DNA of 64,000 nucleotides from an uncultured Candidatus Rokubacteria bacterium (GTDB lineage Bacteria; Methylomirabilota; Methylomirabilia; Rokubacteriales; CSP1-6), in NCBI GenBank assembly GCA_963743355.1, contig CAVUPM010000001.1:849736-913735 (forward strand). Reading direction: 5' to 3'. Position numbers and translations under genes: made by a program. The notes under the pieces were generated by a model. The model made no database searches. It saw only the letters and a list, made by a program, of their open reading frames with translations, and was not told where the DNA came from. This document shows, piece by piece, positions 3,948-32,268 of the stretch. Within the stretch, counting starts at the first letter, position 1. Each line of letters opens with the position of its first letter.

Positions 3948-5735
3948 ATGCTGAATGACGTTCGGGCGTGCCTGGGGTTGCTGTCGCCGCAGGCGCGCTG
4001 GCGCTGGGCCGCGTTGATCCCGCTCGCGCTGGCCTCGGCCGCGGCGGAGGCGGTCGGCGCCGGGGCGGCGTTCGGGTTGATCACGATCCTGGGCGATCCC
4101 GCGCGGGCCGCGACCCTGCCGGTCGCCTCGTGGATCTTCCCCCACCTGCCCTCGCACGACGCCTCGACGGTCATCCTGGCCTTCACGCTGCTGGTCATGG
4201 CGTTCTACATCGCCCGCAACGCGCTGCTGGCCGTGGTGACCTGGGTGCAGGAGCAGGCGCTGAGCGTCTCCGTGCAGCAGCTCTCCCACCGCCTGCTCGC
4301 CGCCTACCTGGCCGCCCCGTACGCGTTTCACGTTCGCCACAACTCGGCGGGGCTCATCCACCGGGTGACCGACGCCGCGCACAGCGTCTTCCGCGGCGTG
4401 CTCGGCTCGCTGGTCAGCGTGACGTGCGAGGCGCTGGTCGTGGCCGGCATCGTCGTCATCCTCGCGCTGACGGCACCGGGCGTGACCCTGGTGGCGGTCG
4501 TCGTGGTGGGCGGGCTACTGCTGCTGCCGCTGACGCTGTCGCGCCACGCCACCGCGCGCTGGGGGCAGGCGGTCGCGCGGCTCGACGGCGAGACGCTGCA
4601 GACGCTGCAGCAGAGCCTGGGCGGCGTGAAGGAGGTCAAGCTCAGCGGGCGCGAGAGCTTCTTCCTCGCCCAGTTCGACGAGCGGGTGGCGGGCGCGGCG
4701 CGCCTGCGCACGCGGTACGCCGCCGTCGCCTCCACCCTGAGGATGGGGGTCGAGACCGTCTTCGTGTGCGGCCTGCTCGCGGTGAGCCTGCTCCTCACCC
4801 TCGAGAGCGGCGCCGCCGCCCTGCCGCTGCTGGGCCTCTACGCGTACGCCGGCTTCCGGGTGATCCCATCGGCCAACCGCATCATGATGTACGTCAGCGA
4901 GCTGCGCTACAGCCGTGCCTGGATCCACGACCTGCGCGACGACCTCGCCGCCCTGCCCCCGCCGGCGCCGCCGACCGGCCCCGGCGCGCCCGAGCCGATC
5001 CGCTTCACCCGCGCCGTCGCGCTCGAGGGGGTGTCCTACACCTACGCGGACGAGGCGGACCCAGTGCTGGTCGACGTGAACCTCACGATCGCCCGAGGCG
5101 AGTCGATCGGGATCGTCGGGCCGTCGGGCGCCGGCAAGAGCACGCTGGTGGACCTGCTCCTCGGCCTGCTGACGCCGACGTCCGGGCGGATCACCGTCGA
5201 CGGGCGCGCCATCACCGGCGCGCTGCGCTCGTGGCAGCGGCACATCGGCTACGTCGCCCAGGAGCCGTTCGTCCTCGACGACACGCTGCGCCGCAACGTC
5301 GCCTTCGGCGTCGCCGACGCCGAGATCGACGACCGCCGGGTGGGCGCGGCGCTGCGGCTGGCCCAGCTCGCCGACTTCGTGACGGGCCTGCCGCAGGGGA
5401 TCGACACCATGCTCGGCGAGCGCGGCACGCGGCTGTCGGGCGGGCAGCGCCAGCGGGTGGCGATCGCCCGCGCGCTCTACGACGAGCCGGAGGTGCTGGT
5501 CTTCGACGAGGCCACCTCCGCGCTCGACACGCCCACCGAGCGGGAGCTGATCGCGGCGCTGGAGGCCCTGCGCGGCGTGAAGACGCTGGTGGTCATCGCG
5601 CACCGGCTCACGACCGTGCGCCGCTGCGACCGCCTGGCCGTGCTGCGCGACGGGCGGCTGGCGGCGGTCGGGCCCTACGACGAGCTGCTCGAGCGCGACG
5701 CCGGCTTCCGCGCCATGGCCGGCTCAGCCCCGTGA
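3948..5735 (+). CDS. ABC exporter (TMD+NBD), PglK/HetA-like lipid-linked oligosaccharide flippase
   Basis: 6 TM segments; Walker A GPSGAGKST, LSGGQRQR, VFDEATSALD; GGVKEVKL and YAGFRVIPSANRI segments typical of the PglK-like subfamily; adjacent to glycosyltransferases. Confidence 0.8.
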   Translation: MLNDVRACLGLLSPQARWRWAALIPLALASAAAEAVGAGAAFGLITILGDPARAATLPVASWIFPHLPSHDASTVILAFTLLVMAFYIARNALLAVVTWVQEQALSVSVQQLSHRLLAAYLAAPYAFHVRHNSAGLIHRVTDAAHSVFRGVLGSLVSVTCEALVVAGIVVILALTAPGVTLVAVVVVGGLLLLPLTLSRHATARWGQAVARLDGETLQTLQQSLGGVKEVKLSGRESFFLAQFDERVAGAARLRTRYAAVASTLRMGVETVFVCGLLAVSLLLTLESGAAALPLLGLYAYAGFRVIPSANRIMMYVSELRYSRAWIHDLRDDLAALPPPAPPTGPGAPEPIRFTRAVALEGVSYTYADEADPVLVDVNLTIARGESIGIVGPSGAGKSTLVDLLLGLLTPTSGRITVDGRAITGALRSWQRHIGYVAQEPFVLDDTLRRNVAFGVADAEIDDRRVGAALRLAQLADFVTGLPQGIDTMLGERGTRLSGGQRQRVAIARALYDEPEVLVFDEATSALDTPTERELIAALEALRGVKTLVVIAHRLTTVRRCDRLAVLRDGRLAAVGPYDELLERDAGFRAMAGSAP

Positions 5736-8919: not shown

Positions 8920-8949
8920 GGTAGGCTCCTCGTGGCTTCGCAGCGTTCT

Positions 8950-10173
8950 ATGCGCGTCACCACGGTGGTTCTCGGCGATCTCGGGCGCAGTCCCCGCATG
9001 CAGTACCATGCGGAAGCCCTCGCGGCCCATCACGTCGACGTGGACGTCGTCGCCTGCGGGGGCAGTGCCGTTCACGCGGAGCTGCGCGTCCATCCGCGGA
9101 TCACCTGTCACTTGCTGCCTCCGGCACGCGAGCGATCCCTGCCCCGCGGGCTGCTCTTGCCGGCCGCCATCTGGAGGGCCGTCGTCCAAGCACTCTGGCT
9201 AGTCTGGATGTTCGTGGCCGTTTTGCGCAAGCCTGACGTGATCCTCGTCCAGAACCCACCGGCCATCCCGACCCTCCTGGTGGTTCTGACCGCCGCCCGG
9301 CTCAGGGGCGCGCGCCTCGTCGTGGACTGGCACAACCTCGCGTGGGCGGTGCTGGCCCTCGGCATCGGCGCCCGCCACCCGGGCGTGACCCTGGCCCGCT
9401 GGTACGAGGGCGTCCTCGGCCGCCGCGCCGACGCCCACCTGTGCGTGTCGGACGCGCTCGCGGCCGAGCTGACGCGCTGGGGCATGCGCCCGGTCAGCGT
9501 CCTGCGCGACCGTCCAGCCGCGCGCTTCGCGCCGCTCGACGCCGCCGCCCGGCACGTCGTGCGCCGCCGGCTCGTGGCCACGCTCGGCCTGGGAGACCGG
9601 GAGCCGGCAATCGTCGTGAGCCCGACCTCGTGGACGCGCGACGAGGACTTCGAGCTGCTGCTCGAGGCGGTTCGACGGTGCGAGGCGCTGGTGCAGGGTC
9701 GCGCGTTTCCCGAGGTGCTCGTGCTGCTCACCGGACGCGGCGCCCGGCGGGCGGGTTTCGAGGCGAGGGCGGCCGCGCTGGCCGGCCGGCGCATCCACGT
9801 GCGGACCACGTGGCTCGAGCCCGACGACTACCCGCGCGTGCTGAGCGCCGCCGACCTCGGCCTCTGCCTGCATCGCTCGGCCTCGGGTCTCGATCTGCCG
9901 ATGAAGATCGTCGACCTGCACGGGGCCGGGCTGCCGGTGTGCGCGCTCGACTACGGGCCGTGCCTGGACGAGATGCTCCGCCACGACGACACCGGCCTGC
10001 GCTTCGCCGACGCCGAGACGCTGGCCCGCCAGTGGGTGGCCCTGCTGGCGACGTTCCCCGGCCCCACGCCGGAGCTCGACCGGCTGCGCGCCAACGTGGA
10101 GAAGGCCCGCGGCACCACGTGGCGCGCGGGCTGGGAGGCCGAGGCCCGGGAGATCCTGCTCGCGCATGCGTGA
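8950..10173 (+). CDS. alg1: ALG1-like GT33 beta-1,4-mannosyltransferase
   Basis: VLGDLGRSPRMQYHA, LVQNPPAIPTL, VDWHN, VSPTSWTRDEDF, WLEPDDYP..LSAADLGLCLHRSASGLDLPMKIVD match eukaryotic ALG1 signature blocks. Confidence 0.92.
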   Translation: MRVTTVVLGDLGRSPRMQYHAEALAAHHVDVDVVACGGSAVHAELRVHPRITCHLLPPARERSLPRGLLLPAAIWRAVVQALWLVWMFVAVLRKPDVILVQNPPAIPTLLVVLTAARLRGARLVVDWHNLAWAVLALGIGARHPGVTLARWYEGVLGRRADAHLCVSDALAAELTRWGMRPVSVLRDRPAARFAPLDAAARHVVRRRLVATLGLGDREPAIVVSPTSWTRDEDFELLLEAVRRCEALVQGRAFPEVLVLLTGRGARRAGFEARAAALAGRRIHVRTTWLEPDDYPRVLSAADLGLCLHRSASGLDLPMKIVDLHGAGLPVCALDYGPCLDEMLRHDDTGLRFADAETLARQWVALLATFPGPTPELDRLRANVEKARGTTWRAGWEAEAREILLAHA

Positions 10174-12421
10174 GCGCCTGGCCGCGCGGGGCCACTGGTG
10201 GCTGGTGGCCGCCCTCGTCGTCGTCGCCTTCCTGGCCCGCACGGTGTTCCTCTTCGGCGCGGTGTTCACCAGCGCCGGCGTGAACTACCAGGACAGCGAC
10301 GCCTGGTACCACATGCGCCTCATCGAGAACCTCACGCGCAACTTCCCGCACCGCGCGAGCCTCGATCCGTACCTCGGCGCCGACGCGCCGGTGGTCGCGG
10401 TGCCGCTGCTCTTCGATCTCGCGGTCGGCGGGCTCGCGTGGGTGCTCGGGCTGGGCGCGCCGTCCACGCGAACGGTGGAGGTGGTGGGCGCACTGGTGCC
10501 GCCGATCCTCGGCGCGCTGACGCTCGTGCCGGTCTTTCTCATCGGCGAGCGGCTCTTCGACCGCCGCACCGGTCTGCTGGCCGCCGGCCTGCTGGCGATC
10601 ATGCCCGGCCAGTTCCTGGCGCGCTCCGTCCTCGGCTTCGCCGACCATCACGTGGCCGAGGCCTGCCTCACCGCGCTCACCGTGCTCGCGTGTCTGTACG
10701 CGCTCGACGCCCAGACACCGCGCCGGCGGCTCCTCGGGGCGGCGCTGACCGGCGTGGCGCTCAGCACCTACCTCATGGCCTGGAGCGGCGGCGCCTTGCT
10801 CGTCTTCGTGCTGTGCGCGTGGGGGGCGACGCAGTACATCCTGGACGACTTCCATCGCGTGGCCGACGACCGCGTGCTGCCGGTGCTGCTGCCGGCGCTG
10901 GCGATCGCGGTGGTCGTCCTGCTCGGATTGCAAGATCGCAATCTCTGGCGCTTCGCCATCCAGGTGACCTCGGTCGTGGCCGGCCTGGTGTTCGTCGTGG
11001 CGATGGCGGCCGGCCGCCGCCTCCTGCGCGCGCTGTCGGCCCCGCGCGGCGCGCTGCTGGCGTGCGCGGTCGTCATCGCCGTCGTGGGTACGGTGCTCTT
11101 CACCCTCGTGGCGCGCGATCTGACGGCACGCATCCTGTCCGACCTGCAGCGCTTCCGGCCCGGCCACACCGGGTTCACCGTGAGCGAGGTGCGCCCGCTG
11201 CTGCTCATGACGGGCTCGCTGTCCTTCGCGGTCCCCTTCGGCGTGTTCGGGCCGGCGTTCTTCGTCAGCCTGCCCGCGCTCGGCTGGCTCGCCTGGACGG
11301 CCGCGCGCACGGCCCGGCCCCCGCTGGTGCTCCTGGTGATCTGGAGCGTGCTGATGTACGCCGCCACGCTCGGGCAAAACCGCTTCGGCTACTACCTGAA
11401 CCTCGACCTCGCGCTGCTGGCCGGCTGGGCGTGCGGGATGGCGCTGGCCTGGGGCTGGGCGCCGCCGGCCGCCGCCCGCTCGCGCGCCGACGCGCGACGC
11501 GCGCGCGATCGCGCCGGCGCGCTCCCCGGCGGCTCCTGGGGGCTGCTGCGCCGCCGCATCGCGGCGGTGGCGGCCGTCGTCGCGGTCGTGTTCGCGCCCA
11601 GTGCCCTGGTCGCGCGCCCGATGGCCAGCAACAACCTGGGGCTCAGCGACGGCTACCGCGCCTCGCTCGAGTGGCTGCGCCGCAACACGCCGGAGCCGTT
11701 CCCCGATCCGGACTACTACTACGCGCGCTATCGCGCCGGCCAGACGCTGGCCCCGGCCTACACGGTGATGTCCTGGTGGGACTACGGCTACGAGATCATC
11801 CGCCTGGGGCGGCGGGTGCCGGTCGCCAACCCCACCCAGGCCGGCGCCGACGTCGCCGGGCGCTTCTTCACGGCGACCGACGAGGCGGAGGCGGCGAAGA
11901 TCCTCGACGAGCACAAGGCGCGCTACGTGGTCGCCCACGGTGAGGTGCCGATCCTGCCGCGCGGCGGGCTCGTGCAGGGCAAGTTCGAGACGCTGGCGGC
12001 GTGGGCGGGCAAGGACATCAACCGGTACTGGGAGACGTTCCTCACCAAGGACGCCAAGGGCGCACTCGGCCCGCTGGTCCTGTTCCACCCGGAGTACTAC
12101 CGGACACTGGCCGTGCGCCTCTACGTGTACGGCGGCGCCGCGGCGGTCCCCCAGGACACGACGTACGTCGTCGCCTACGTCGAGCGGCAGATGCCGGACG
12201 GCACGCGCGGCAAGGAGATCCTGGAATCGCGGCGGTTCAAGACCTACGAGGGGGCCGTCGCCTATCTCGACCGCTTCGGTCACACCGGGCGCACCATCGT
12301 CGGCCTCGATCCCAAGCAGACGCCGGTCCCGATCGAGCGGCTGACGCGCTTTCGCTTCCTGCACGAGTCGCCGGGCGCGGCGCCGGCTGTGCGCATCTTC
12401 GAATACCCCGGCCGCAGCTGA
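10166..12421 (+). CDS. aglB: STT3/AglB family oligosaccharyltransferase (archaeal AglB-like)
   Basis: DSDAWYH, GFADHH, TVSE, QNRFGYY, SWWDYG, VANPTQAG; polytopic N-terminal region and soluble C-terminal domain. Confidence 0.93.
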   Translation: MRERLAARGHWWLVAALVVVAFLARTVFLFGAVFTSAGVNYQDSDAWYHMRLIENLTRNFPHRASLDPYLGADAPVVAVPLLFDLAVGGLAWVLGLGAPSTRTVEVVGALVPPILGALTLVPVFLIGERLFDRRTGLLAAGLLAIMPGQFLARSVLGFADHHVAEACLTALTVLACLYALDAQTPRRRLLGAALTGVALSTYLMAWSGGALLVFVLCAWGATQYILDDFHRVADDRVLPVLLPALAIAVVVLLGLQDRNLWRFAIQVTSVVAGLVFVVAMAAGRRLLRALSAPRGALLACAVVIAVVGTVLFTLVARDLTARILSDLQRFRPGHTGFTVSEVRPLLLMTGSLSFAVPFGVFGPAFFVSLPALGWLAWTAARTARPPLVLLVIWSVLMYAATLGQNRFGYYLNLDLALLAGWACGMALAWGWAPPAAARSRADARRARDRAGALPGGSWGLLRRRIAAVAAVVAVVFAPSALVARPMASNNLGLSDGYRASLEWLRRNTPEPFPDPDYYYARYRAGQTLAPAYTVMSWWDYGYEIIRLGRRVPVANPTQAGADVAGRFFTATDEAEAAKILDEHKARYVVAHGEVPILPRGGLVQGKFETLAAWAGKDINRYWETFLTKDAKGALGPLVLFHPEYYRTLAVRLYVYGGAAAVPQDTTYVVAYVERQMPDGTRGKEILESRRFKTYEGAVAYLDRFGHTGRTIVGLDPKQTPVPIERLTRFRFLHESPGAAPAVRIFEYPGRS

Positions 12422-13971: not shown

Positions 13972-16900
13972 TTGGGGGGTGTCGTGGGACCGGTCCTTCC
14001 ACGCGTCGCGTACGTCGTCCTCATCCTCGCCGTCCTCGCGAGCGCCGGCTTGGCCGACGCCGGCGTCACCCCGTTCTGGCCGGAGCTCGGCGGCTCGGGC
14101 AGCGGCACCGGGGTGAGCCAGACGCCCAGCCCCAAGGGGGTCTTCGACGGCTCGATGGCCGTGGGCGGCGACGGCCGGCCGGTGATCGTGTACACCGAGT
14201 ATCCGGACGGGACGTCGGCCCAGGGCCCCATCATCGTGAAGCGATGGACGGGCTCGACGTGGGAGACTCTCGGCGGGTCGGGCCTCGGGCCGGGGTACGA
14301 GCCGCAGGTGCAGATTTCGTCGAGCGGCTCGATCTATGTCGCCTGGCTCACCGATGACGTCGACGGCAACACCGAGGTTCGCCTGCGCGTGCGGACAGGC
14401 TCGACCTTCGACGAGCTCGACGACTCCGACTCGCCCGGCGGCGTCTCGGGGCCCAACGGCGGCATCACGCCTCCCTTCTCGCTCGCCCTCAACGCGTCGG
14501 GCAACCCGATCGTGGCGTTCCTCGGCGTCGCGGAGACGGGCATCCTGGAAATGACGACACCCGCGATCGTCGACTCGACCTTCCAGGTCTACGTGCGGCG
14601 GTGGACAGGCACCGCGTGGGAGTTCGTGGGCGGCGGCTTCGCGGGTGACGACGGCTTCTCGGGCGGCGGCGCCAGCAACGCCCGCAGCTTCACGAGCCCT
14701 CTCGGGGACATCATCCACGACGCCGACACGCCCTCGCTGGCCGTGGACGAACACGGCGAGCCGGTCGTGGCGTTCACCTACTACACGTCGATCGCCGGCT
14801 CGCCGGTGGCCAACACGGACGTCTACGTCACCCGCTGGAACGGCTCGGCGTGGGTGCCGGTCGGTCCCGCGGTGCCGGCCGCGGACGGAGCGATCGGGCG
14901 CGGCGGCGCCGGCGGAATCAGCGCCAGCACCAGCGGCTCCTTCAACCCCTCGCTCGCCGCCGATGCGACGGGCAAGCTCGCGCTGGCCTGGGAAGAGGAG
15001 CCGCTGAGCGGCGGCGTCTACATCTGGGTGCGCACGTGGAACGGCACGACCTGGGTGCAGCTCGCCAACTCGGCGGCCGGCGGCGGCCTCACCCAGGTCG
15101 ATACGTTCAACAATCTGCCCCGGATCGCCATCGACACGAACGGACGTCCCATCGTCACCTGGGCGGCGCTCGTCGCGATCGAGAACCCCACGCAGATCTT
15201 CGTCCGCCGCTGGAATGGGACCAATGCATGGGACGAGCTCGGCTTCCACTCCGCCCGCGACGCCGGCGTCAGCGACGCTGCCGTTGACGCGCTCGCGCCC
15301 GCGTTGGCCCTCACACCGCCCGGTGGCACGGTGGACGCCGGCATCCCGACGATCGCCTGGCTCGACCTGCAGGAGGGCTCCTTCCAGGTCTTCCTGAGGC
15401 AGTTCTTCTCGGGGCCGAGCTTTCCGCTGACGACGCGAGTCAGCGGCAGCGGCACGCTGACTAGCGACCCGATCGGGGTGGAGTGCTCGACCAACGCGTG
15501 CGCGGCGTCGTTCCCGAGCGGGACCAGCGTCACCCTCCTGCCCGAGGCCGGATCCGGATCGGCCTTCACCGGGTGGGCAGGCGGGTGCACGGGCAGCGGC
15601 CCCTGCAGCGTGGCCATGACGGCCGCGCGCAGCGTGAACGCGAGCTTCGTCGGGGTCCGCGGCTTGACGCTCGCCGTCGCGGTTCCGGCGGGCACCCCCG
15701 TGCAGGGCACGGTCGGCAGCGTCGTCGGGCCCGCGGGCACCTGCCTCTTCGGCGGCAGTGCCGCGTGCGTCTCCGACGTGCTGCACGGCACGCGCGTGAT
15801 CCTGCAGGCGACGCCGCCGGCGGGCAATCGGTTCCTCAACTGGACGGGCGGGCCGTGCAACGGCCGCACGAACGCCACCTGCGATTTCGTCATGAACGCC
15901 AACGTGAGCACGACGGCGCTCTTCCGGGCCGTCACCGGCGTGGCCGTGGTCAAGGTGGGCAACGGCGTCGGGACCGTCACCGGGACGGGCATCAGCTGCG
16001 GCACCGATTGCTTCCAGGAAGTCTTCACGGGCACCAGCGTGACCCTGACGCCGGTGGCGGCCACGGGCAGCAGCTTCCTCGGCTGGACGGGTGACGTCTG
16101 CAACGGCCAGGTGGCCGGCGCCTGCGTGGTCCCGACCGTCGGGCAGTTGAACCGGAGCGTCACCGCGACGTTCCAGCTCAAGAGACACGCGCTGGCGGTC
16201 ACGGCTGCCAGTACCGGCGCGGCGGTCGGCTTTGCGACCAGCAGCCCCGCCGGTATCAACTGCGGCGGTCCCGACCATACACAGTGCTCGGTCGACTACA
16301 ACTACGGGACCACCGTGGTGCTGACGCCCTCCCCGGGTGCGGACAGCAAGCTGACGTCGTGGACCGGCTGCACGAGCCTGAACGGCTCGGTCTGCAACGT
16401 GCTCTTGACGGCCAACCGTACCGTCACCGCGCGCTTCGGGGAAGCGCGCACCCTGGATGTCCAGGCCTCCGGCAACGGCAGCGGCCGCATCGTGTCGGCA
16501 ACAGCACCCGGCCTGACCTGCGTCAGCAACTGCTCGGTGTCCCAACTCTATGCCGTCAACACCTCGGTCATCCTCACGCCGCAGGCGGCGGTTGGCACCA
16601 CCTTCCAGTGGGTGGGCGGCATCTGCAGCGGCAAGGCGAGCTGCACCGCTCTCATGAGTCAGAACCGCACGGCCACCGGCCAGTTCACGCTGAACCGCCA
16701 CTCGCTGGCCGTGTTCAACCGGCCCAGCGGGAGCGTCGTCAACCTCCCGCCGTTGCCGGGCGGCACGATCAACTGCGGCAGCGGCATCTCCGTCTGCGCG
16801 GGGGTTTTCGACTACGGCACGCCGGTCACCCTGCGGGCCGCGCCGAACGACGGGTTCATCTTCGTCAACTGGACCGGCGTCACGTGCGCGGGGGGGGCGA

Positions 16901-19395
16901 CCAATGCGACGTGCGCGTTCCCGCTGCGCGCCAACGTCACCGTGACGCCCAACTATCGAGCCCGTACACTGCTCACGATCGTCAAGGACGGCACCGGCGC
17001 CGGTACGGTCTCCGGGCCCGGCATCAGCTGCGGCGCCGACTGCTCGGAGGCGGCGTTCGACGGCCGCGCGGTAACGCTGCGGGCCACGCCCGCCGTGGGA
17101 TCACGTTTCCTCGACTTCGGCGGCGCCTGCGTGTCGAACACCTCGGCGTGCACCTTCCTGCCGGCCGGGAACAATCAGACCGTCACCGCAACGTTCCAGC
17201 TGATCTCCTACACCGTGACCATGCTGTCCAGGGCCAACGGAGGCGCCGTCTCCACCAACACGCTGCCGGACCCCATCGCCTGTGGCGCCGGCAGCGGCGA
17301 CTGCCTGGCGACGCTCGACTTCGGCACCCAGGTGGTGCTGCAGGCCACGCCCATCACCGGCAGCCGGTTCGTCAACTGGACCGGCACCGTCTGCAACGGC
17401 TCGACGAACGCGACCTGTTCCTTCCGCATCCCGGCCGCCAACGTGTCGGTGTCGCCCAACTTCAAGGACGTCACCGCCCTCACCCTGACCAAGAGCGGCG
17501 CCGGCGGCACGATCGTGTCCACGCCGGCCGGTATCAGCTGCGCCGGCGCGGCGTGCACCACCAGGACGTTCGACTTCGCGCGGGGCATCCTGGTCAGGCT
17601 CACGCCGACGACGGCGGTCGGCTGGAACTTCGACGGGTTCTCCGGCGACTGCTCGGGCGCCACCTGCGCGGTCAACGCGAGCGCGCCGACCGCGCTGGTC
17701 GCCGCCAGCTTCTCGATCCAGCAGCGGCGGCTCACGGTCACCGTGGTCGGCCAGGGCGGCGTGAGCGGCCCCGGCGCTGCCTGTGACACGGGGAGCACGC
17801 CCTGCGCCCTGGACTTCGACTACGGCACCAACCTGACGCTGACCGCCACCGCCGCCGCCGGCCATCGCTTCACCGGCTGGACGCAGAACTGCGCGGGCGT
17901 TCTCGTCTGCAACAACCTCATGACCGTCAACCGCTCGGTCACGGCGACGTTCAAGCCCCAGTTCGGGCTCACGGTCACCAAGCCGGGCAACAGCACCGGC
18001 ACCATCACGGCCGCGGCCAGCCCGGCCGGGATCCCCCCATTCAGTTGCGGTGTCGGCACCAACCTGTGCAGCAGCACCTACCTGGGCGGCCAGGTCGTCA
18101 CGCTGACGCGCAGCGCGCCGATCGTCTCGACGACGTTCCGCTGGGGCGGTGACTGCGCGCTCCGCGGCACCAACGCGACCTGCGCGCTGCCGCTGAACGC
18201 CAACGCCTCGGTGATCGCCGACTACAGCCTGAAGCAGCTCGGCCTCACCGTCGTCAAGGTCGGCGCGCCGCTCGGCACCGTCACCGGCCTGGCGGGCGGG
18301 ATCGCCTGCGGCAGCGACTGCACCGACGTGGTGAACTACGGCACGCTCGTGACGCTGACCGCGATCCCGAACACGCCGCCAAATCCAAACCCCGCATCCG
18401 AGTTCGTGTCGTGGGCGGGCTGTGCGACCGCCGCCACCAACGCGTCGTGCTCCTTCACGATGACCGCGAACAAGACGGTGACGGCCACGTTCCGGCCCCT
18501 CGTGAGCAGCGTCGCCCTGGACACGCTGAGCCCCAGCACGACGCTGGCCGCGGGTGGCGTCCGGCAAGTTTCGGCCACCGCGACGTTCACGGATGACACT
18601 CAGCAGGACGTCACGACTCAGGCAGCGTGGGTCTCGCTGACGCCGACGATCGCCACGGTGAACACCACCGGGCTCGTCACGGGCAAGCTCGCCGGCAACG
18701 CCAGCGTCCGGGCGACGTTCCGGTCGATCCAGAGCGCCCCCATGACGATCCCGGTGGACTCGCTGCAAGCGCTCACCGTATCGTGCGTCCCCTACGGGCA
18801 GGACGGTGGGCTGACCTGCCTGCCGAGCGCTGTGAACTTCAGCGTCCAGTGCGAGGCGCGTGGCAGGTTTCCGAGCACGGGGGTGCAGGACATCGACATC
18901 ACGGACCAGGCCACGTGGGTCTCGAGCCACCCCACGATCGCGCGGTCAACTGGTTTCGTCGGATTCAACGGGCCGATTCGCCAATCGTTCCGGATCGTGG
19001 GGAACGGGACGGCAACCCTGCGGGCCACGCAGAGCGGCAAGACCTCGCCGACGACCGGTGCGCTCGGCACCGATGCCTGGGTCGTGCAGGGCGTGGCATC
19101 GACGGTGACCAGCATCCAGGTCACACCACCGACGGGACAGGTGAGCGTCGGCGCGAATCCGCTGCTATTGAAGGCAACCGCCGCCCTGAGCAGCGTGGCG
19201 CCCGGGTGTACGTCACCGCCCTCGCGTGACTTCTCGACGGTGGTGAGCTGGGAGAGCAGCGACGAGGATCGCGCGGACGTCAGCTTCTTCGGCGAGGTCA
19301 CGGGTCTCGACCCCGGCCCCGTGACCATCACCGCGACCTACGGGAACGGCATCGTGGTCCCTCCCGACACCGCCTCCATCACCGTTGCGCCGTAG
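13972..19395 (+). CDS. Large secreted surface/adhesin-like protein: beta-propeller-like N-terminus, ~12 Cys-containing InlB-B-like repeats, ~3 Big_2-like domains; sequon-rich
   Basis: Signal peptide ending ..LADA; repeated xxRWNG/WTG blades; repeats of type G.V...GI.C...C....GT.V.L.A.P..G..F..W.G.C......C........V.A.F; C-terminal DVT..A.W.S..P.IATV..G.V. Confidence 0.85.
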   Translation: MGGVVGPVLPRVAYVVLILAVLASAGLADAGVTPFWPELGGSGSGTGVSQTPSPKGVFDGSMAVGGDGRPVIVYTEYPDGTSAQGPIIVKRWTGSTWETLGGSGLGPGYEPQVQISSSGSIYVAWLTDDVDGNTEVRLRVRTGSTFDELDDSDSPGGVSGPNGGITPPFSLALNASGNPIVAFLGVAETGILEMTTPAIVDSTFQVYVRRWTGTAWEFVGGGFAGDDGFSGGGASNARSFTSPLGDIIHDADTPSLAVDEHGEPVVAFTYYTSIAGSPVANTDVYVTRWNGSAWVPVGPAVPAADGAIGRGGAGGISASTSGSFNPSLAADATGKLALAWEEEPLSGGVYIWVRTWNGTTWVQLANSAAGGGLTQVDTFNNLPRIAIDTNGRPIVTWAALVAIENPTQIFVRRWNGTNAWDELGFHSARDAGVSDAAVDALAPALALTPPGGTVDAGIPTIAWLDLQEGSFQVFLRQFFSGPSFPLTTRVSGSGTLTSDPIGVECSTNACAASFPSGTSVTLLPEAGSGSAFTGWAGGCTGSGPCSVAMTAARSVNASFVGVRGLTLAVAVPAGTPVQGTVGSVVGPAGTCLFGGSAACVSDVLHGTRVILQATPPAGNRFLNWTGGPCNGRTNATCDFVMNANVSTTALFRAVTGVAVVKVGNGVGTVTGTGISCGTDCFQEVFTGTSVTLTPVAATGSSFLGWTGDVCNGQVAGACVVPTVGQLNRSVTATFQLKRHALAVTAASTGAAVGFATSSPAGINCGGPDHTQCSVDYNYGTTVVLTPSPGADSKLTSWTGCTSLNGSVCNVLLTANRTVTARFGEARTLDVQASGNGSGRIVSATAPGLTCVSNCSVSQLYAVNTSVILTPQAAVGTTFQWVGGICSGKASCTALMSQNRTATGQFTLNRHSLAVFNRPSGSVVNLPPLPGGTINCGSGISVCAGVFDYGTPVTLRAAPNDGFIFVNWTGVTCAGGATNATCAFPLRANVTVTPNYRARTLLTIVKDGTGAGTVSGPGISCGADCSEAAFDGRAVTLRATPAVGSRFLDFGGACVSNTSACTFLPAGNNQTVTATFQLISYTVTMLSRANGGAVSTNTLPDPIACGAGSGDCLATLDFGTQVVLQATPITGSRFVNWTGTVCNGSTNATCSFRIPAANVSVSPNFKDVTALTLTKSGAGGTIVSTPAGISCAGAACTTRTFDFARGILVRLTPTTAVGWNFDGFSGDCSGATCAVNASAPTALVAASFSIQQRRLTVTVVGQGGVSGPGAACDTGSTPCALDFDYGTNLTLTATAAAGHRFTGWTQNCAGVLVCNNLMTVNRSVTATFKPQFGLTVTKPGNSTGTITAAASPAGIPPFSCGVGTNLCSSTYLGGQVVTLTRSAPIVSTTFRWGGDCALRGTNATCALPLNANASVIADYSLKQLGLTVVKVGAPLGTVTGLAGGIACGSDCTDVVNYGTLVTLTAIPNTPPNPNPASEFVSWAGCATAATNASCSFTMTANKTVTATFRPLVSSVALDTLSPSTTLAAGGVRQVSATATFTDDTQQDVTTQAAWVSLTPTIATVNTTGLVTGKLAGNASVRATFRSIQSAPMTIPVDSLQALTVSCVPYGQDGGLTCLPSAVNFSVQCEARGRFPSTGVQDIDITDQATWVSSHPTIARSTGFVGFNGPIRQSFRIVGNGTATLRATQSGKTSPTTGALGTDAWVVQGVASTVTSIQVTPPTGQVSVGANPLLLKATAALSSVAPGCTSPPSRDFSTVVSWESSDEDRADVSFFGEVTGLDPGPVTITATYGNGIVVPPDTASITVAP

Positions 19396-21504: not shown

Positions 21505-22692
21505 TCAGCTACACGCCTCGAACAAACCCGCCGCGCCCTGGCCGCCACCGATGCACATCGTGACGACGCCGTAGCGCGCCTTGCTGCGCAGCATCTCGTT
21601 GGCGAGGGTGCCGACCATCCGGGAGCCGGTCATGCCGAACGGATGGCCGATCGAGATCGACCCGCCGTTCTTGTTCAGCTTCGCCGGGTCGAGGCCCAGC
21701 CGGTCGCGGCAGTAGACGACCTGGGAGGCGAATGCCTCGTTCAGCTCCCACACGTCGATGTCCTCGACCTTGAGGCCGTGGCGCTTCAGCAGCTTGGGCA
21801 CCGCGAACACGGGGCCGATGCCCATCTCGTCCGGCTCGCAGCCGGCGATGGCGAAGCCGCGGAAGAGCAGCTTGGGCCGGATTCCGAGCGCCTCCGCGCG
21901 GGCGCGCGACATCAGCAGCGTGGCCGAGGCGCCGTCGGAGAGCTGCGAGGAGTTGCCGGCGGTGACGGTGCCCTTCCCGCTCGTCTTGTCGAAGTGGGGC
22001 TGCAGCGAGAGCAGGCCCTCGAGCGTCGTGTCGGCGCGGTTGCACTCGTCCTTGTCGACGTAGTAGTCCTCCTCGCCGACCTTCTCGCCCGTCTTCCGGT
22101 CGAGGACCGCGCGCTTGACCTGCATGGGCGCCATCTCTTCCTTGAAGAAGCCCTCCTGCTGGGCGCGGGCCGTGCGCTGCTGGCTGGACAGCGCGTACTC
22201 GTCCTGGGCCTGGCGGGTGACGTTGTAGCGCTTGGCCACGACCTCGGCGGTGTCGCCCATGACCATGTAGATGCCGGGGAAGTGCTCCTTCACCCATGGA
22301 TTGGGGCTCGAGTCCCGCTGCATCATCGTGATCGACTCCACCCCGCCGCCGATCGCCGCCTCCACGCCCTCGTTGATGATGAGGTGGGCGGCCATGGAGA
22401 TGGCCTGCAGCCCCGACGAGCAGAAGCGGTTGACGGTCGTGCCGGCCACGGTCACCGGCAGACCCGCCCGGATGGCCGCCACCCGCGCGATGTTGTGGCC
22501 CTGCGGCCCGTGCGGCTGGCCGCAGCCCAGGATGACGTCCTCGACCTCTTTACCGTCGAGCTGGGGCGCCTTGCCGAGCACGTCGCGGATCGCGTGGCCG
22601 GCGATATCGTCGGGCCGGGTGATGTTGAAGGAGCCGCGCTGCGACTTGGCCAGGGGCGTGCGGGAACTGGCGACGACGACCGCTTCTCTCAT
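21505..22692 (-). CDS. Acetyl-CoA C-acyltransferase (thiolase)
   Basis: NRFCSSG, NEAF, GHPFG, MCIGGGQG. Confidence 0.95.
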   Translation of the reverse strand: MREAVVVASSRTPLAKSQRGSFNITRPDDIAGHAIRDVLGKAPQLDGKEVEDVILGCGQPHGPQGHNIARVAAIRAGLPVTVAGTTVNRFCSSGLQAISMAAHLIINEGVEAAIGGGVESITMMQRDSSPNPWVKEHFPGIYMVMGDTAEVVAKRYNVTRQAQDEYALSSQQRTARAQQEGFFKEEMAPMQVKRAVLDRKTGEKVGEEDYYVDKDECNRADTTLEGLLSLQPHFDKTSGKGTVTAGNSSQLSDGASATLLMSRARAEALGIRPKLLFRGFAIAGCEPDEMGIGPVFAVPKLLKRHGLKVEDIDVWELNEAFASQVVYCRDRLGLDPAKLNKNGGSISIGHPFGMTGSRMVGTLANEMLRSKARYGVVTMCIGGGQGAAGLFEACS

Positions 22693-27980: not shown

Positions 27981-29169
27981 ATGGCTGACGCCGTCATCGT
28001 CTCCACCGCCCGCACCCCGATCGGCCGGGCCTACCGCGGCGCCTTCAACAACACGCACGGCGCCGTGCTGGGCGGCCACGTGATCCAGCACGCCGTGCAG
28101 CGCGCCGGCCTCGAGCCGGGCGAGGTCGAGGACGTCATCCTCGGCTGCGCGCTGCCCGAGGGCGCCACCGGGCAACAACATCGCGCGGCAGTCGGCGCTC
28201 CGCGCCGGCCTGCCGGTCACCACCGCCGGCGTCACCGTCAACCGGTTCTGCTCGTCGGGCATGCAGGCCATCGCCATGGCCGCCCAGCGCGTGATCGTCG
28301 ACCGGGTGCCGGTCATGGTGGCCGGCGGCCTGGAGTCGATCAGCCTGGTGCAGACCGAGCACATGAACCTGCACCGGTTCCGCGAGACGTGGCTGGAAGA
28401 GCACAAGCCCGAGATCTACATGTCGATGATCGAGACGGCCGAGGTCGTGGCCAAGCGCTACTACATCACCCGCGAGACGCAGGACGAGTACGCGCTGGCC
28501 AGCCAGCAGCGCACCGCGGCGGGCCAGCGCGAGGGGCGCTTCGACCGCGGAGATCGTCCCGCTGCCGACCACGAAAGCTCGTCCAGGACAAGGCCAGCGG
28601 CGAAACGCGCGAGGAGGCGGTGACGCTCACGAAGGACGAGGGCAACCGGGCCGACACCACCGCCGCGGGGCTGGCCGCGCTCAAGCCGGTGGCCGGGCGA
28701 GAAGGGCGTCATCACCGCGGGCAACGCCAGCCAGCTCTCCGACGGCGCCTCCGCCTGCGTGGTCATGGACGCCAAGCTCGCCGAGCGCCGCGGGCTGTCG
28801 CCGCTCGGCATCTTCCGCGGCTACGCGGTGGCGGCGTGCGAGCCCGACGAGATGGGCATCGGCCCGGTCTTCGCGGTGCCGCGGCTGCTCGAGCGCACCG
28901 GCCTGCGCATGGACCAGATCGATCTGTGGGAGCTGAACGAGGCCTTCGCCGTCCAGGTCGTCTACTGCCGCGACAGGCTGGGAATCCCCATGGAGCGGCT
29001 GAATGTCGACGGCGGCGCAATCTCCATCGGGCATCCCTACGGGATGAGCGGCGCCCGCATGGTCGGCCACGCCCTCATCGAGGGCAAGCGCCGCGGCGCC
29101 CGCTACGTCGTCTGCACCATGTGCATCGGCGGCGGCATGGGCGCCGCCGGCCTCTTCGAGGTGGCGTAA
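27981..29169 (+). pseudogene. Thiolase interrupted by four +1 frameshifts (pseudogene or sequencing error)
   Basis: Thiolase motifs distributed over frames; single-base insertions near 28171, 28547, 28574 and 28696. Confidence 0.8.
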
Positions 29170-29248: not shown

Positions 29249-30682
29249 ATGCCCGACCAGGTGCTGACCCATGCGGACCCCCAGGCCGGCCCGGGCCGGA
29301 TCGCGGTCGAGATCGGCCGGGCGATGGTACGCAACGACGACCTGATCGACCGGGCGCTCATCCGCGGGTGGCTGTCGTGGGGCTTCTTCTGGCTGATGTT
29401 CGCGCCGACGGTCGGCGTCCTCGTCTCCACCAAGTTCAACTATCCCGACTTCCTCGGCACGCAGGCGTGGTCGACCTTCGGTCGCCTGCGCCCCGTGCAC
29501 GTCAACGGCGTGATCTGGGGCGCGTTCTCCACCCTGTTCATCGGCCTCGCCTACTACGTCACGCCCCGCCTGGCCGGCGTGCGCGTGTGGAACGAGCGGT
29601 GGGCGTATCCGCTGCTGTGGGTGTGGAACCTCAACCTGGTCGCCGCCTTCATCGGCATCACCGTCTTCGGCACCAACCGGGGCTGGGAGGCCGGTGAGCT
29701 CGCGCTGCCCAACGTGCTCGTGCTGACCGTCGCGGTGCTGATGATCTCGCTGCAGCTGCTGATGACCATCGCCCGCCGGGTGCAGCGCGACCTCTACGTC
29801 AGCCTCTGGTACCTGATCGGCGCGCTCGTGTGGACCGACATCAACCTCCTGTTGCTGATCATCGGGCCGTACTGGACGGTGCCGGGGATCAACAACGCCG
29901 CCCTCCACGGCCTGTTCATTCACTATGTCGTCGGGCTGTGGATCACTCCAGCTGGTTATGTCTTGATCTACTACTTTCTCCCGGCGTCGGTCCGGGCGCC
30001 GATCTACAGCCACAAGCTCTCGCTGATCGGCTTCTGGTCGCTGGCTTTCTTCTACCCGTTCGTCGGCATCCACCACTACCTCTACAGCCCCATCGCCGAC
30101 TGGGCCGAGACGATCGCGATCGTGTCATCGATGATGCTCATCATCCCGGTGTGGACCGTGCTCCAGAATTTCTTCGGCACGATGAGGGGGCACTGGGACG
30201 GCTTCTCGCGGAACCTGACGGCCAAGTTCCTGATCATGGGCTCGCTCATGTACCTCGTCGGCTGCTTCCAGGGCTCGGTGGAGGCCCTCCGCTCACTGCA
30301 GGAGCCCACCCACTTCACCGATTTCGTGATCGCGCACTCACACCTCACCGTGTTCGGGACGTTCGTGGTCTGGGCCATCGCCGGCTCCATCCACGTGTGG
30401 CCGCGGATCGTCGGCCGCGAGCTGTGGAGCTTCCGGCTCGGCAACTGGAGCTTCTGGCTCATCACGCTGGGGATCTCCACCATGGGTCTCGTGCTGTCGG
30501 CGCAGGGGCTCCAGCAGGGCTACATGCTGATGGCCCGCGCGGAGTGGGTGGACACGGTGGTCGCGATGAAGCCGTTCTGGTTCGTCCGCACGCTGTCCGG
30601 GCTCTCGATGGACATCGGCATCTCGCTGCTGGTCTACAACTTCATGCAGACCGCGCTGGCCCCGGCCCCGGTGACGCGATGA
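29249..30682 (+). CDS. ccoN: cbb3-type heme-copper oxidase subunit I
   Basis: FGRLRPVHVN, IHYVVG, FYPFVGIHHY, HFTD..IAHSH; ~12 TM. Confidence 0.88.
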   Translation: MPDQVLTHADPQAGPGRIAVEIGRAMVRNDDLIDRALIRGWLSWGFFWLMFAPTVGVLVSTKFNYPDFLGTQAWSTFGRLRPVHVNGVIWGAFSTLFIGLAYYVTPRLAGVRVWNERWAYPLLWVWNLNLVAAFIGITVFGTNRGWEAGELALPNVLVLTVAVLMISLQLLMTIARRVQRDLYVSLWYLIGALVWTDINLLLLIIGPYWTVPGINNAALHGLFIHYVVGLWITPAGYVLIYYFLPASVRAPIYSHKLSLIGFWSLAFFYPFVGIHHYLYSPIADWAETIAIVSSMMLIIPVWTVLQNFFGTMRGHWDGFSRNLTAKFLIMGSLMYLVGCFQGSVEALRSLQEPTHFTDFVIAHSHLTVFGTFVVWAIAGSIHVWPRIVGRELWSFRLGNWSFWLITLGISTMGLVLSAQGLQQGYMLMARAEWVDTVVAMKPFWFVRTLSGLSMDIGISLLVYNFMQTALAPAPVTR

Positions 30683-32268
30683 AGACCTACGCGCTCGGCG
30701 CCGGCTTCCTGTGCATCTCGCTGGCGATCTTCGTCCAGGGCCTGCTGCCCATCGCGATCCCGGAATCGCGCGAGACCCGCACGACGCGGGCGGTTCGCAC
30801 CGAGCTCGGCGAGATCAAGTGGGTCTGGCACGAGGCGACGCCCTACACGCCGCTGGAGCAGCTGGGGCGCAACGTGTACCAGCGCGAGGGGTGCTGGTAC
30901 TGCCACAGCCAGTTCGTGCGTCCCGTGGCCGGCGAGGACCAGCGCTGGGGCCCCGTGGCCGAGGTCGGCGAGTACGCCTACGACTGGCCGCACCTGCTCT
31001 CCACGCGCCGCATCGGGCCCGACCTCTCGCGGGTGGGGCTCAAGTTCTCCGACCACTGGCACTTCGCCCACCACTGGGAGCCGCGCATGCTGGTACCGGA
31101 CTCGGTGATGCCGAATTTCCAGTGGCTCTACCGCACCGTCCCGGTGCCCGTCGTCGAGCGTGAGGGCGTCCCCGCGCTGGGCGACAGCCCGGCGCTGAAG
31201 GCGCTCTTCAGCTTCAAGCCGGAGCCGCGGATCCCGCTCTATCCGAGCCCGGAGGGCCTGGCGTTCGTCGCCGTCACCGACGGGACGCCGATGCTCGAGG
31301 TCGAGAACTTGCCGGAGCCGTTCGACAAGCCCGCGACCTGGAAGGGCAAGACGCTCACCGTGGTGGTGCCGTCGGAGGAGCTGCGCGGGCTGGTCGCCTA
31401 CACCCAGAAGCTGGGCACCAACCGGGGGGCGTGGCGCGAGGCGTTCGAGCCCCAGGCGGTCTCGGTCAGCGTCATGACGCTGCCCAACACGCCCGAGCAG
31501 GCGGCGCGCGGGAAGCTCGTCTACGAGCGGCGGTGCGTCGGCTGCCATGGCGACAAGGGCGACGGCAACGGGCCGGCCGCCACCTTCCTCGATCCGCGCC
31601 CGCGGAATTTCACGCTCGGCTCCTTCAAGTTCCGGACGACGCCGTCGGGCTCGCTGCCGACCGACGGCGATCTCTATCGCACGCTGACGCGCGGCGTCCG
31701 CTGGACGGCGATGCCCACATGGCACGAGCTGCCGGAGAAGGACCGGATCGCGGTGATCGCCTACATCAAGACCTTCTCGACCCGCTGGAAGGACGAGAGG
31801 CCGGAGCCGCCGATCGTGATCGGCGATCCCCCCCGGCCGACGCCGGAGCTGCTGGCCCGAGGCAAGGAGCTCTACACGCAGGCGAAGTGCTTCCAGTGTC
31901 ACGGCGACGGTGGCAAAGGCGACGGCCCCTCGGCGCACGAGCTTCGCGACGATCTGAAGTTCCCCATCCGGCCCGCCGACTTCACGAAGGGCCAGTTCAA
32001 GGGCGGCGGCGAGGTCGCCGACATCTACCGCGCGATGACGACCGGCCTCGACGGCACGCCGATGCCGTCGTTCGCCGACTCCATGAAGGACGACGAGCGC
32101 TGGGCCATCAGCTACCACGTGCTCTCGCTCTCGGCGTTCAACGACCCGCTGACCGGCCAGAAGCTGAAGCTCGATCCGGCCGCGCGGGCCGCGCTGAACT
32201 CGACCGGCGCCGAGTCGCCCCGGGCGCTCGTCCGCTTCTACAAGGGCATCCTCGGGGAAGGACGCTAG
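30679..32268 (+). CDS. ccoO: CcoO-like subunit fused to two extra cytochrome c domains (3 CxxCH)
   Basis: YQREGCWYCHSQFVRP..RRIGPDL..SVMP, then CVGCH and CFQCH; ATGA-coupled to ccoN. Confidence 0.85.
   Translation: MKTYALGAGFLCISLAIFVQGLLPIAIPESRETRTTRAVRTELGEIKWVWHEATPYTPLEQLGRNVYQREGCWYCHSQFVRPVAGEDQRWGPVAEVGEYAYDWPHLLSTRRIGPDLSRVGLKFSDHWHFAHHWEPRMLVPDSVMPNFQWLYRTVPVPVVEREGVPALGDSPALKALFSFKPEPRIPLYPSPEGLAFVAVTDGTPMLEVENLPEPFDKPATWKGKTLTVVVPSEELRGLVAYTQKLGTNRGAWREAFEPQAVSVSVMTLPNTPEQAARGKLVYERRCVGCHGDKGDGNGPAATFLDPRPRNFTLGSFKFRTTPSGSLPTDGDLYRTLTRGVRWTAMPTWHELPEKDRIAVIAYIKTFSTRWKDERPEPPIVIGDPPRPTPELLARGKELYTQAKCFQCHGDGGKGDGPSAHELRDDLKFPIRPADFTKGQFKGGGEVADIYRAMTTGLDGTPMPSFADSMKDDERWAISYHVLSLSAFNDPLTGQKLKLDPAARAALNSTGAESPRALVRFYKGILGEGR

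Follow-up and report, generated by a model that had tools for sequence, protein, structure and literature searches.

How does a bacterium come to carry, in one gene cluster, an oligosaccharyltransferase (OST) of archaeal type beside glycosyltransferases that resemble ALG1 and ALG2 of eukaryotes, and what would it glycosylate with them? The question is raised by a stretch of 64,000 nucleotides (hereafter the window) from an uncultured Candidatus Rokubacteria bacterium, a soil-type bacterium (GenBank assembly GCA_963743355.1, contig CAVUPM010000001.1, positions 849,736 to 913,735), in which the OST gene occupies positions 10166 to 12421. We consider it fairly probable that this enzyme, which is of the AglB-L type, transfers a glycan with a predicted mannose-chitobiose structure from a lipid carrier to plain N-X-S/T sites (sequons) of a few large exported proteins, chiefly a repeat protein of 1807 residues encoded nearby. 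Taken by parts, N-glycosylation of this neighbour is very probable, and its combination with a mannose-chitobiose core is somewhat favoured. Our argument starts from gene content, conserved gene order, the OST subtype with its intact catalytic residues, and an excess of sequons that is linked to the pathway; each enzyme activity, the glycan and the lipid carrier are predictions drawn from what is known of the families. Contamination is unlikely because the GC content of the cluster matches that of its flanks and ten further genomes carry it as well.

The identity of the OST is firm: it is AglB-L-like, and neither a PglB nor an STT3. Its ATG-started reading frame is intact, with no internal stop codon, and it is the sole STT3-family gene found in the genome. 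The protein scores 477.7 bits against TIGR04154 (cut-off 450) and finds no match at E<=1e-3 with NF050801, the NCBIfam model for PglB. A single-sequence search of the PDB returned the AglB-L of Archaeoglobus fulgidus (1e-50) and human STT3B (3e-8) and no PglB; with a profile of 51 sequences the values were 1e-135 for AglB-L and 5e-26 for STT3A, again with no PglB at E<=10. The AlphaFold model (pLDDT 94.9) has the GT66 architecture of a 13-helix membrane domain and a C-terminal globular core, and Foldseek ranks AglB-L first (1.5e-33, TMq 0.76), STT3 second (3e-20 to 2e-14), and PglB last (9e-11 to 1.5e-9). All sequence features of GT66 are present: two DXD-type motifs, a TIXE/SVSE-type motif, the conserved Arg, WWDYG, and a DK/MI-type Lys. 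The motifs stand at residues 43 (DSDAWYH), 157 (GFADHH), 338 (TVSE), 404 (QNRFGYY), 537 (WWDYG), and 554 (ANPTQAG), followed by E593 and GKF (605-607). Those that a preliminary description of this DNA had read as AglB-like are thus where it placed them, and the distinction that it drew from STT3 and PglB is borne out. According to the accessible text of PMC8342417, WWDYG is followed by DGGK in PglB and by DNXT in STT3; in the window's protein DGGK and DNNT are both absent and ANPTQ follows instead. Both of these identities were accordingly rejected, that of PglB also on its unmatched model, its last rank by fold, and its absence from the profile search. One detail of the preliminary description needs loosening: the residues of its E...GKF motif are present, but the match is a loose one because E593 is conserved in just 21 of 51 aligned relatives and lies 13 residues from K606, versus 5 in the A. 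fulgidus enzyme (AfAglB). The catalytic residues are far more constant: D45, D160, H162, and R406 are invariant across the 51 relatives, and E341, W538, and D539 are kept in 50, 50, and 48 of them.

AfAglB (PDB 3waj, 3wak, 5gmy, 7e9s) is the best match by both sequence and fold, and it too has ANPxQ after WWDYG. Residues D45, D160, H162, E341, and R406 align with its D47, D161, H163, E360, and R426, while W537-D539, Q558, and K606 align with its WWD motif (D552), Q571, and K618 (most AfAglB numbers and the motif names are from the accessible text of PMC8342417). Unlike AfAglB, the window's enzyme resides in a bacterium, is some 120 residues shorter, lacks His81, and has no archaeosortase beside it in the host genome: neither archaeosortase A, the usual associate of TIGR04154 (TIGR04125, PF09721; genome 95% complete, controls detected), nor any other archaeosortase or exosortase partner was found there. 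Its predicted donor is also a diphosphate rather than a monophosphate. The column of His81 was tried as a signature of such a donor switch and rejected: it is variable in archaea, with His in only 16 of 41 archaeal rows.

The candidate acceptor has a hydrophobic N-terminus, 12 Cys-containing InlB-B-like repeats, and Ig-like domains. It holds 36 sequons, whereas 2000 shuffles gave 16.1 +/- 3.6 and never more than 30, and is the most sequon-enriched of 5284 roughly called genes; three other very large exported-type proteins rank among the top 21. Three exported-type proteins of more than 2000 residues, which carry 27 to 33 sequons each and may be extra acceptors, are encoded at C1:1120919-1127188, C1:1127819-1134646, and C2:1803672-1810691 of the same genome (G000). 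None of the 36 sequons has D/E at -2, and in nine orthologues D/E occupies this place in 8 of 256 sequons, versus a background of about 6%. Since the repeats are not independent of one another, homologous repeats served as controls. Beside the pathway, 110 repeats (8765 residues) carry 217 sequons, versus 11 sequons in 56 repeats (4247 residues; 20 stretches from 12 genomes) where no strong OST match exists. An orthologue of the repeat protein occurs in this genus alone (10 of 251 genomes of the phylum), and one of its holders, G008, is a natural control: OST, ALG1, ALG2, the MurG paralogue, and the orthologue of the ABC exporter were not found anywhere in this genome (84% complete), and the 12 kb preceding the orthologue on its 36-kb contig hold no pathway gene. 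The G008 orthologue has 7 sequons where 5.0 are expected (z 1.0), versus z values of 3.2 to 7.2 for nine orthologues from genomes or contigs that hold the pathway; per repeat this amounts to 0.60 sequons versus 1.77 to 2.50, and the G008 repeats carry Arg or Lys at the sites of the window's sequon Asn. Sequons are thus abundant in holders of the pathway and scarce in the single close relative in which no pathway could be detected, which points in the predicted direction. A general enrichment of exported proteins was looked for as well and rejected as weak (observed/expected 1.10 for signal-peptide-like proteins).

Could the OST be uncoupled from its neighbours, taking a monophosphate donor from elsewhere or standing idle, so that the sequon excess merely reflects repeat structure? 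The periodicity of the beta-strands does raise S/T at other offsets from the 80 Asn of the repeat protein, namely -2 (20) and +4 (24), yet the sequon offset +2 stands above them (38), and the same repeat family is sequon-poor without the pathway. Outside the Rokubacteria no OST lies within reach in 8 of 21 ALG1 loci of at least 10 kb, and most of the bacterial loci among the best 80 listed for AglB-L-type OSTs have no ALG genes within 10 kb. Against this, the OST start overlaps the end of the ALG1-like gene, the two adjoin in 22 of 23 rokubacterial-type contigs, and the catalytic residues are invariant; we regard such uncoupling as very unlikely. The distribution of the genes is narrow. The OST was detected in 10 of 13 genomes of the same genus and in 1 of 47 other relatives; across the 251 genomes of the phylum, 13 have strong STT3-family matches (E<=1e-12; 55 more have weak, short ones) and 12 have an ALG1-like gene, 11 of the latter being of this genus. 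Eight of nine fetched stretches of relatives keep the gene order as far as they reach, although some lack single genes; the ninth comes from another family and contains only MurG and a broken OST. Frame damage, which may be assembly error or decay, was seen in L019 (G003:C34; frameshifts in the ALG1-like and repeat genes, with WecA and ALG2 missing from the cluster) and in L023 (G047:C75; OST spread over three frames, beside a MurG-like gene).

The genes around the OST (Table 1) suggest what glycan it might receive. Every neighbour that the preliminary description had named is present: the WecA-like, MurG-like, ALG1-like, and ALG2-like proteins and the ABC exporter of PglK/MsbA type.

Table 1. 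Genes of the OST cluster, with positions in the window.
Feature	Position	Strand	Basis or remark
ABC exporter of HepA/MsbA/PglK kind, likely flippase	3948..5735	+	all models below cut-offs; syntenic in relatives
Further GT4 glycosyltransferase, 384 aa	5724..6878	-	Pfam GT4; generic names only
WecA-like polyprenyl-phosphate HexNAc-1-phosphate transferase, 315 aa	6875..7822	-	PF00953; best NCBIfam model ECA_wecA, below cut-off
Second MurG-like GT28, likely chitobiose-forming step	7819..about 8919 (start codon uncertain)	-	TIGR01133, 234 bits (cut-off 250)
ALG1-like beta-1,4-mannosyltransferase, 407 aa	8950..10173	+	overlaps OST start by 8 bases; names of relatives
Single-subunit OST, AglB-L/TIGR04154 type, 751 aa	10166..12421	+	profile, PDB, fold, tree
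ALG2-like GT4, 398 aa	12583..13779	-	GIGGAER, EHFGLVPLE; Pfam GT4
Secreted-type repeat protein, 1807 aa, candidate acceptor	13972..19395 (start codon uncertain)	+	PF18998, PF02368

In the scheme that we propose, WecA would prime undecaprenyl phosphate with GlcNAc-1-P to give undecaprenyl-PP-GlcNAc, and the spare MurG paralogue would add a beta-1,4-GlcNAc to form chitobiose. The ALG1-like enzyme would then add beta-1,4-Man and the ALG2-like enzyme alpha-1,3/1,6-Man; the further GT4 may extend the glycan; and the ABC exporter would flip it for transfer by the OST outside the inner membrane. Neither the WecA-like nor the MurG-like protein is the only copy in the genome; identity to the others is about 35% (for MurG, 35% to G000:C2:2558304). 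The chitobiose step is assigned to the MurG paralogue because MurG, Alg13/14, and archaeal Agl24 share beta-1,4-GlcNAc chemistry and a catalytic His loop, as described in the accessible text of PMC8993221; by the motifs given there, the window's protein retains this loop (PTAGH) together with GGY and HEAN. The named relatives of the ALG1-like protein are mostly called beta-1,4-mannosyltransferase. The ALG2-like protein carries both signature motifs (GIGGAER, EHFGxVPLE) that the accessible text of bioRxiv 10.1101/2025.10.15.682550 defines, so that the cluster holds the pair expected of a eukaryotic ALG pathway, an ALG1 homologue and an ALG2 homologue with intact signatures. A PDB sequence search gave no match for the ALG1-like protein and generic GT4s only for the ALG2-like one. 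For the further GT4 an ALG11 identity was considered, but searches returned no more than generic names and GT4 clusters from bacteria or archaea. This gene is absent from some copies of the cluster, and in L022 none lies between WecA and the ABC gene. No bacillosamine genes were seen among the cluster genes. A ManC-like gene elsewhere in the genome, below cut-off, is counted in favour of a mannose-containing glycan.

Several observations weigh against this proposal. The preprint just cited reports eukaryotic activities in vitro for several bacterial ALG1 and ALG2 homologues, the active ALG1 members including those from Binatia, Polyangia, and Gammaproteobacteria, but the enzymes that it took from Methylomirabilota showed no activity when assayed for the eukaryotic reactions: in its accessible text ALG1 yielded no product in vitro, no ALG2 product is reported, and rescue of yeast is reported for neither. 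Those enzymes may be close orthologues of the window's, because ALG1-like genes of the phylum are nearly confined to this genus. Euryarchaeal AglBs take monophosphate donors, where WecA would give a diphosphate, although the sugar-linked phosphate is placed alike in AglB and PglB (both from the accessible text of PMC8342417). Some copies of the cluster (L019, L154, L181) lack ALG2 and WecA next to the OST. On the acceptor side, the control repeats are paralogues, 32 of the 56 from one genome, and four of the 12 control genomes carry weak STT3-family matches; G008 is one incomplete genome with a shorter orthologue; three paralogues in pathway-holding genomes are weakly enriched (z 1.3 to 1.9); and the genome-wide value for signal-peptide-like proteins compares with 0.97 (1.03 for a reverse-motif control) on rough gene calls. 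Some of these points would fit a different glycan, in which case the OST would still glycosylate the repeat protein and the MurG, ALG1, or ALG2 homologues would use other sugars or acceptors. Substitutions peculiar to the genus do lie near conserved ALG1 motifs, the neighbouring GT4 has only generic names, and the activity of the MurG paralogue is itself a prediction. Yet the ALG2 signatures are intact, the ALG1-like protein is 53% identical to a homologue from Binatia, one of the groups with active enzymes, and MurG, ALG1, ALG2, and the ABC exporter stay together across distant contigs, while failure in yeast or in E. coli membranes is explicable by folding or a missing partner. We therefore hold a non-core glycan to be unlikely, and keep to the mannose-chitobiose core.

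Where did the OST come from? Its best 80 loci in GTDB belong to Rokubacteria, Dehalococcoidia, Vicinamibacterales and other Acidobacteriota, a few other bacteria, and three archaea; among them ALG1 lies within 10 kb in the rokubacterial loci only, and farther off in two of five genomes checked. We built a FastTree tree of 110 rows (near-copies removed; 23 partial or WWD-less matches first dropped, three of them restored) and an IQ-TREE mixture tree of 46 rows, both without STT3, PglB, TACK, and Asgard rows. In both, the OST falls in a single bacterial clade with support 100, sister to Vicinamibacterales and among Dehalococcoidia, and this clade is placed within the Halobacteriota AglBs, close to Methanosarcinales-type rows. 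In the AU test, a constraint that keeps the 22 archaeal rows in one group gave a borderline p-AU of 0.056, which does not reject their monophyly; with this value and this choice of rows the subtype of the OST is firm and its exact nesting is not. Since the nearest relatives are themselves a bacterial clade, descent from archaea is ancient and indirect: the lineage would have passed from Halobacteriota into bacteria and then spread between bacterial phyla. Bacterial OSTs inside a euryarchaeal clade, with at least two transfers, have already been reported (accessible text of PMC4973528). A search for such OSTs on plasmids returned only two distant haloarchaeal AglBs. In a Vicinamibacterales-type subclade (L029, L035, L039, L046, L057, and others) WWDQG replaces WWDYG.

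The ALG1-like protein has a different history. Besides its Binatia homologue it is 45% identical to that of Cyanophora and 35 to 39% to those of three other named eukaryotes. An unrooted tree of 161 rows splits into sides of 70 and 91, the window's gene being on the latter, where other rows are named Binatia; among ten rows looked up on each side, five of the 70-row side are named eukaryotes and none of the window's side has a taxon name. In a smaller unrooted tree five named eukaryotes stand apart from 21 cluster-borne genes with support 100. The window's side is old and diverse, comprising 91 of the 161 rows, mostly 50%-identity representatives; the direction of transfer between eukaryotes and bacteria cannot be given from unrooted trees. 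Four representatives on the bacterial side (P0248, P0296, P0351, P0363) are 718 to 798 residues long and possibly fused to another cluster gene. According to the accessible text of bioRxiv 10.1101/2024.10.30.621208, ALG1 matches among prokaryotes occur in bacteria only.

The module itself is not tied to one OST. Metagenomes gave 80 loci that surround ALG1-like genes, and 57 of them, mostly short contigs with near-copies kept, have an ALG1 less than 65% identical to the window's; these hold a MurG-like gene in 37 cases, ALG2 in 36, the ABC exporter in 20, WecA in 16, and an OST in 19, rising to 13 of 21 for the OST in loci of at least 10 kb. Three kinds of OST, which branch apart in the OST tree, occur beside the module: the AglB-L type, a long RRV..DGG type, and a divergent type that scores under the TIGR04154 cut-off. 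For the long type, the best PDB match is an STT3-related domain from archaea (2zag, 5aza; from Pyrococcus), and it is weak; in L135:3189-8830 two long-type genes stand in tandem beside one MurG/ALG1/ALG2/ABC module. The divergent OST (L148:11241-13871, L156:15421-17985, L165:64-2607) has FWDFG, AWDLG, or NWSFG for WWDYG and always adjoins the ALG1-like gene in these loci. We suggest that the OST was added to a bacterial ALG1/ALG2/MurG/ABC module of greater age, which elsewhere works with other OST types. The preliminary description had instead called the pathway a three-domain mosaic, which is overstated: the closest kin of the OST are bacterial, the ALG1-like gene belongs to a broad bacterial clade apart from the eukaryotes, and the same module is paired with other OSTs. 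Three affinities are a fair description, and three donors do not follow from it. A true mosaic, in which an early eukaryote gave ALG1 and ALG2, an archaeon gave the OST, and all else is bacterial, would be compatible with the proposed function. It draws on the patchiness of ALG1 in bacteria (the 12 of 251 genomes above), the identity of up to 45% to eukaryotic proteins, and the short internal branch between the two ALG1 groups. We judge it improbable given the size of the window's side of the tree, with the named eukaryotes all opposite; moreover, the window's gene nests in no eukaryotic group, and bioRxiv 10.1101/2025.10.15.682550 argues in its accessible text that eukaryotes took ALG1 and ALG2 from bacteria. 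The safer reading is that a bacterial lipid-linked-glycan module with eukaryote-like chemistry recruited an archaea-derived OST.

Compared with the cytosolic half of the eukaryotic dolichol pathway (ALG7, ALG13/14, ALG1, ALG2, ALG11) and STT3, the cluster has the same predicted order of chemistry, relatives of ALG1 and ALG2, and a short sequon. It has WecA in place of ALG7, a one-chain MurG paralogue for ALG13/14, an ABC flippase for RFT1, a single-subunit AglB-type OST, and a GT4 for which no link to ALG11 was seen. Like the Campylobacter pgl locus (PglB, PglK), it is a bacterial gene cluster that combines an initiating transferase and GT4s with an ABC flippase and a single-subunit OST; unlike pgl, its OST is not a PglB, bacillosamine genes were not seen in it, and its candidate acceptor has no D/E at -2. 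Its predicted product is that of the Man3GlcNAc2 pathway engineered in E. coli from yeast Alg13, Alg14, Alg1, and Alg2 plus PglB (accessible text of PMC6043479), with the same undecaprenyl-PP glycan; the window's cluster would be nature's counterpart of it, equipped with a flippase and OST of its own. The bacterial homologues of bioRxiv 10.1101/2025.10.15.682550 are of the same families with the same ALG2 motifs, Methylomirabilota members included; the accessible text does not treat gene neighbourhood, OST, or acceptor. Bacterial OSTs of archaeal descent (accessible text of PMC4973528) and bacterial ALG1 and ALG2 enzymes were thus known before; new here is a candidate acceptor with a control for presence or absence of the pathway. 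Our literature search, which largely left subscription journals uncovered, found no description of the cluster or of this OST clade.

The origin of eukaryotic N-glycosylation is debated, STT3 being archaeal-looking and ALG1 and ALG2 maybe bacterial; here one bacterial cluster unites both kinds of part, and its candidate acceptor and pathway control make the system directly testable. Our boldest and tentative reading is of a natural, complete N-glycosylation system of eukaryotic type: Man3GlcNAc2 built on undecaprenyl-PP, an archaea-derived single-subunit OST retuned to a diphosphate donor, a dedicated surface protein glycosylated at plain N-X-S/T sites, and an old bacterial cassette whose OST was swapped at least twice. 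It might then, just as tentatively, serve as a living model of a bacterial ALG1/ALG2 module meeting an archaeal OST when eukaryotes arose. Should the glycan prove to be Man3GlcNAc2, the enzyme would be a natural single-subunit OST adapted by evolution to that donor and to short sequons, the very pairing that limits bacterial production of human-type glycoproteins. The biotechnological value put forward in the preliminary description holds in this respect and is less unique than it supposed: C. jejuni PglB already transfers Man3GlcNAc2 weakly (about 40% in vitro, <5% in vivo; accessible text of PMC6043479), and D. marinus PglB accepts minimal sequons (accessible text of PMC12229607).

A few minor features of the window deserve mention. 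The MurG-like and ALG1-like genes are divergent, with a gap of about 30 bases (8920-8949; about 60 in relatives). A sigma-70 scan of this gap found nothing; it holds a short element that is conserved across the 18 relatives' loci checked (weaker in one) and could be read, on the ALG1 strand, as an extended -10 box or, on the MurG strand, as a ribosome site ahead of an ATA. Further downstream, at 27981-29169, lies a second thiolase-like gene, a paralogue of that at 21509-22297 and seemingly split over several frames, and at 29249-32118 a pair of genes that, judged by their translations alone, resemble cbb3-type cytochrome oxidases.

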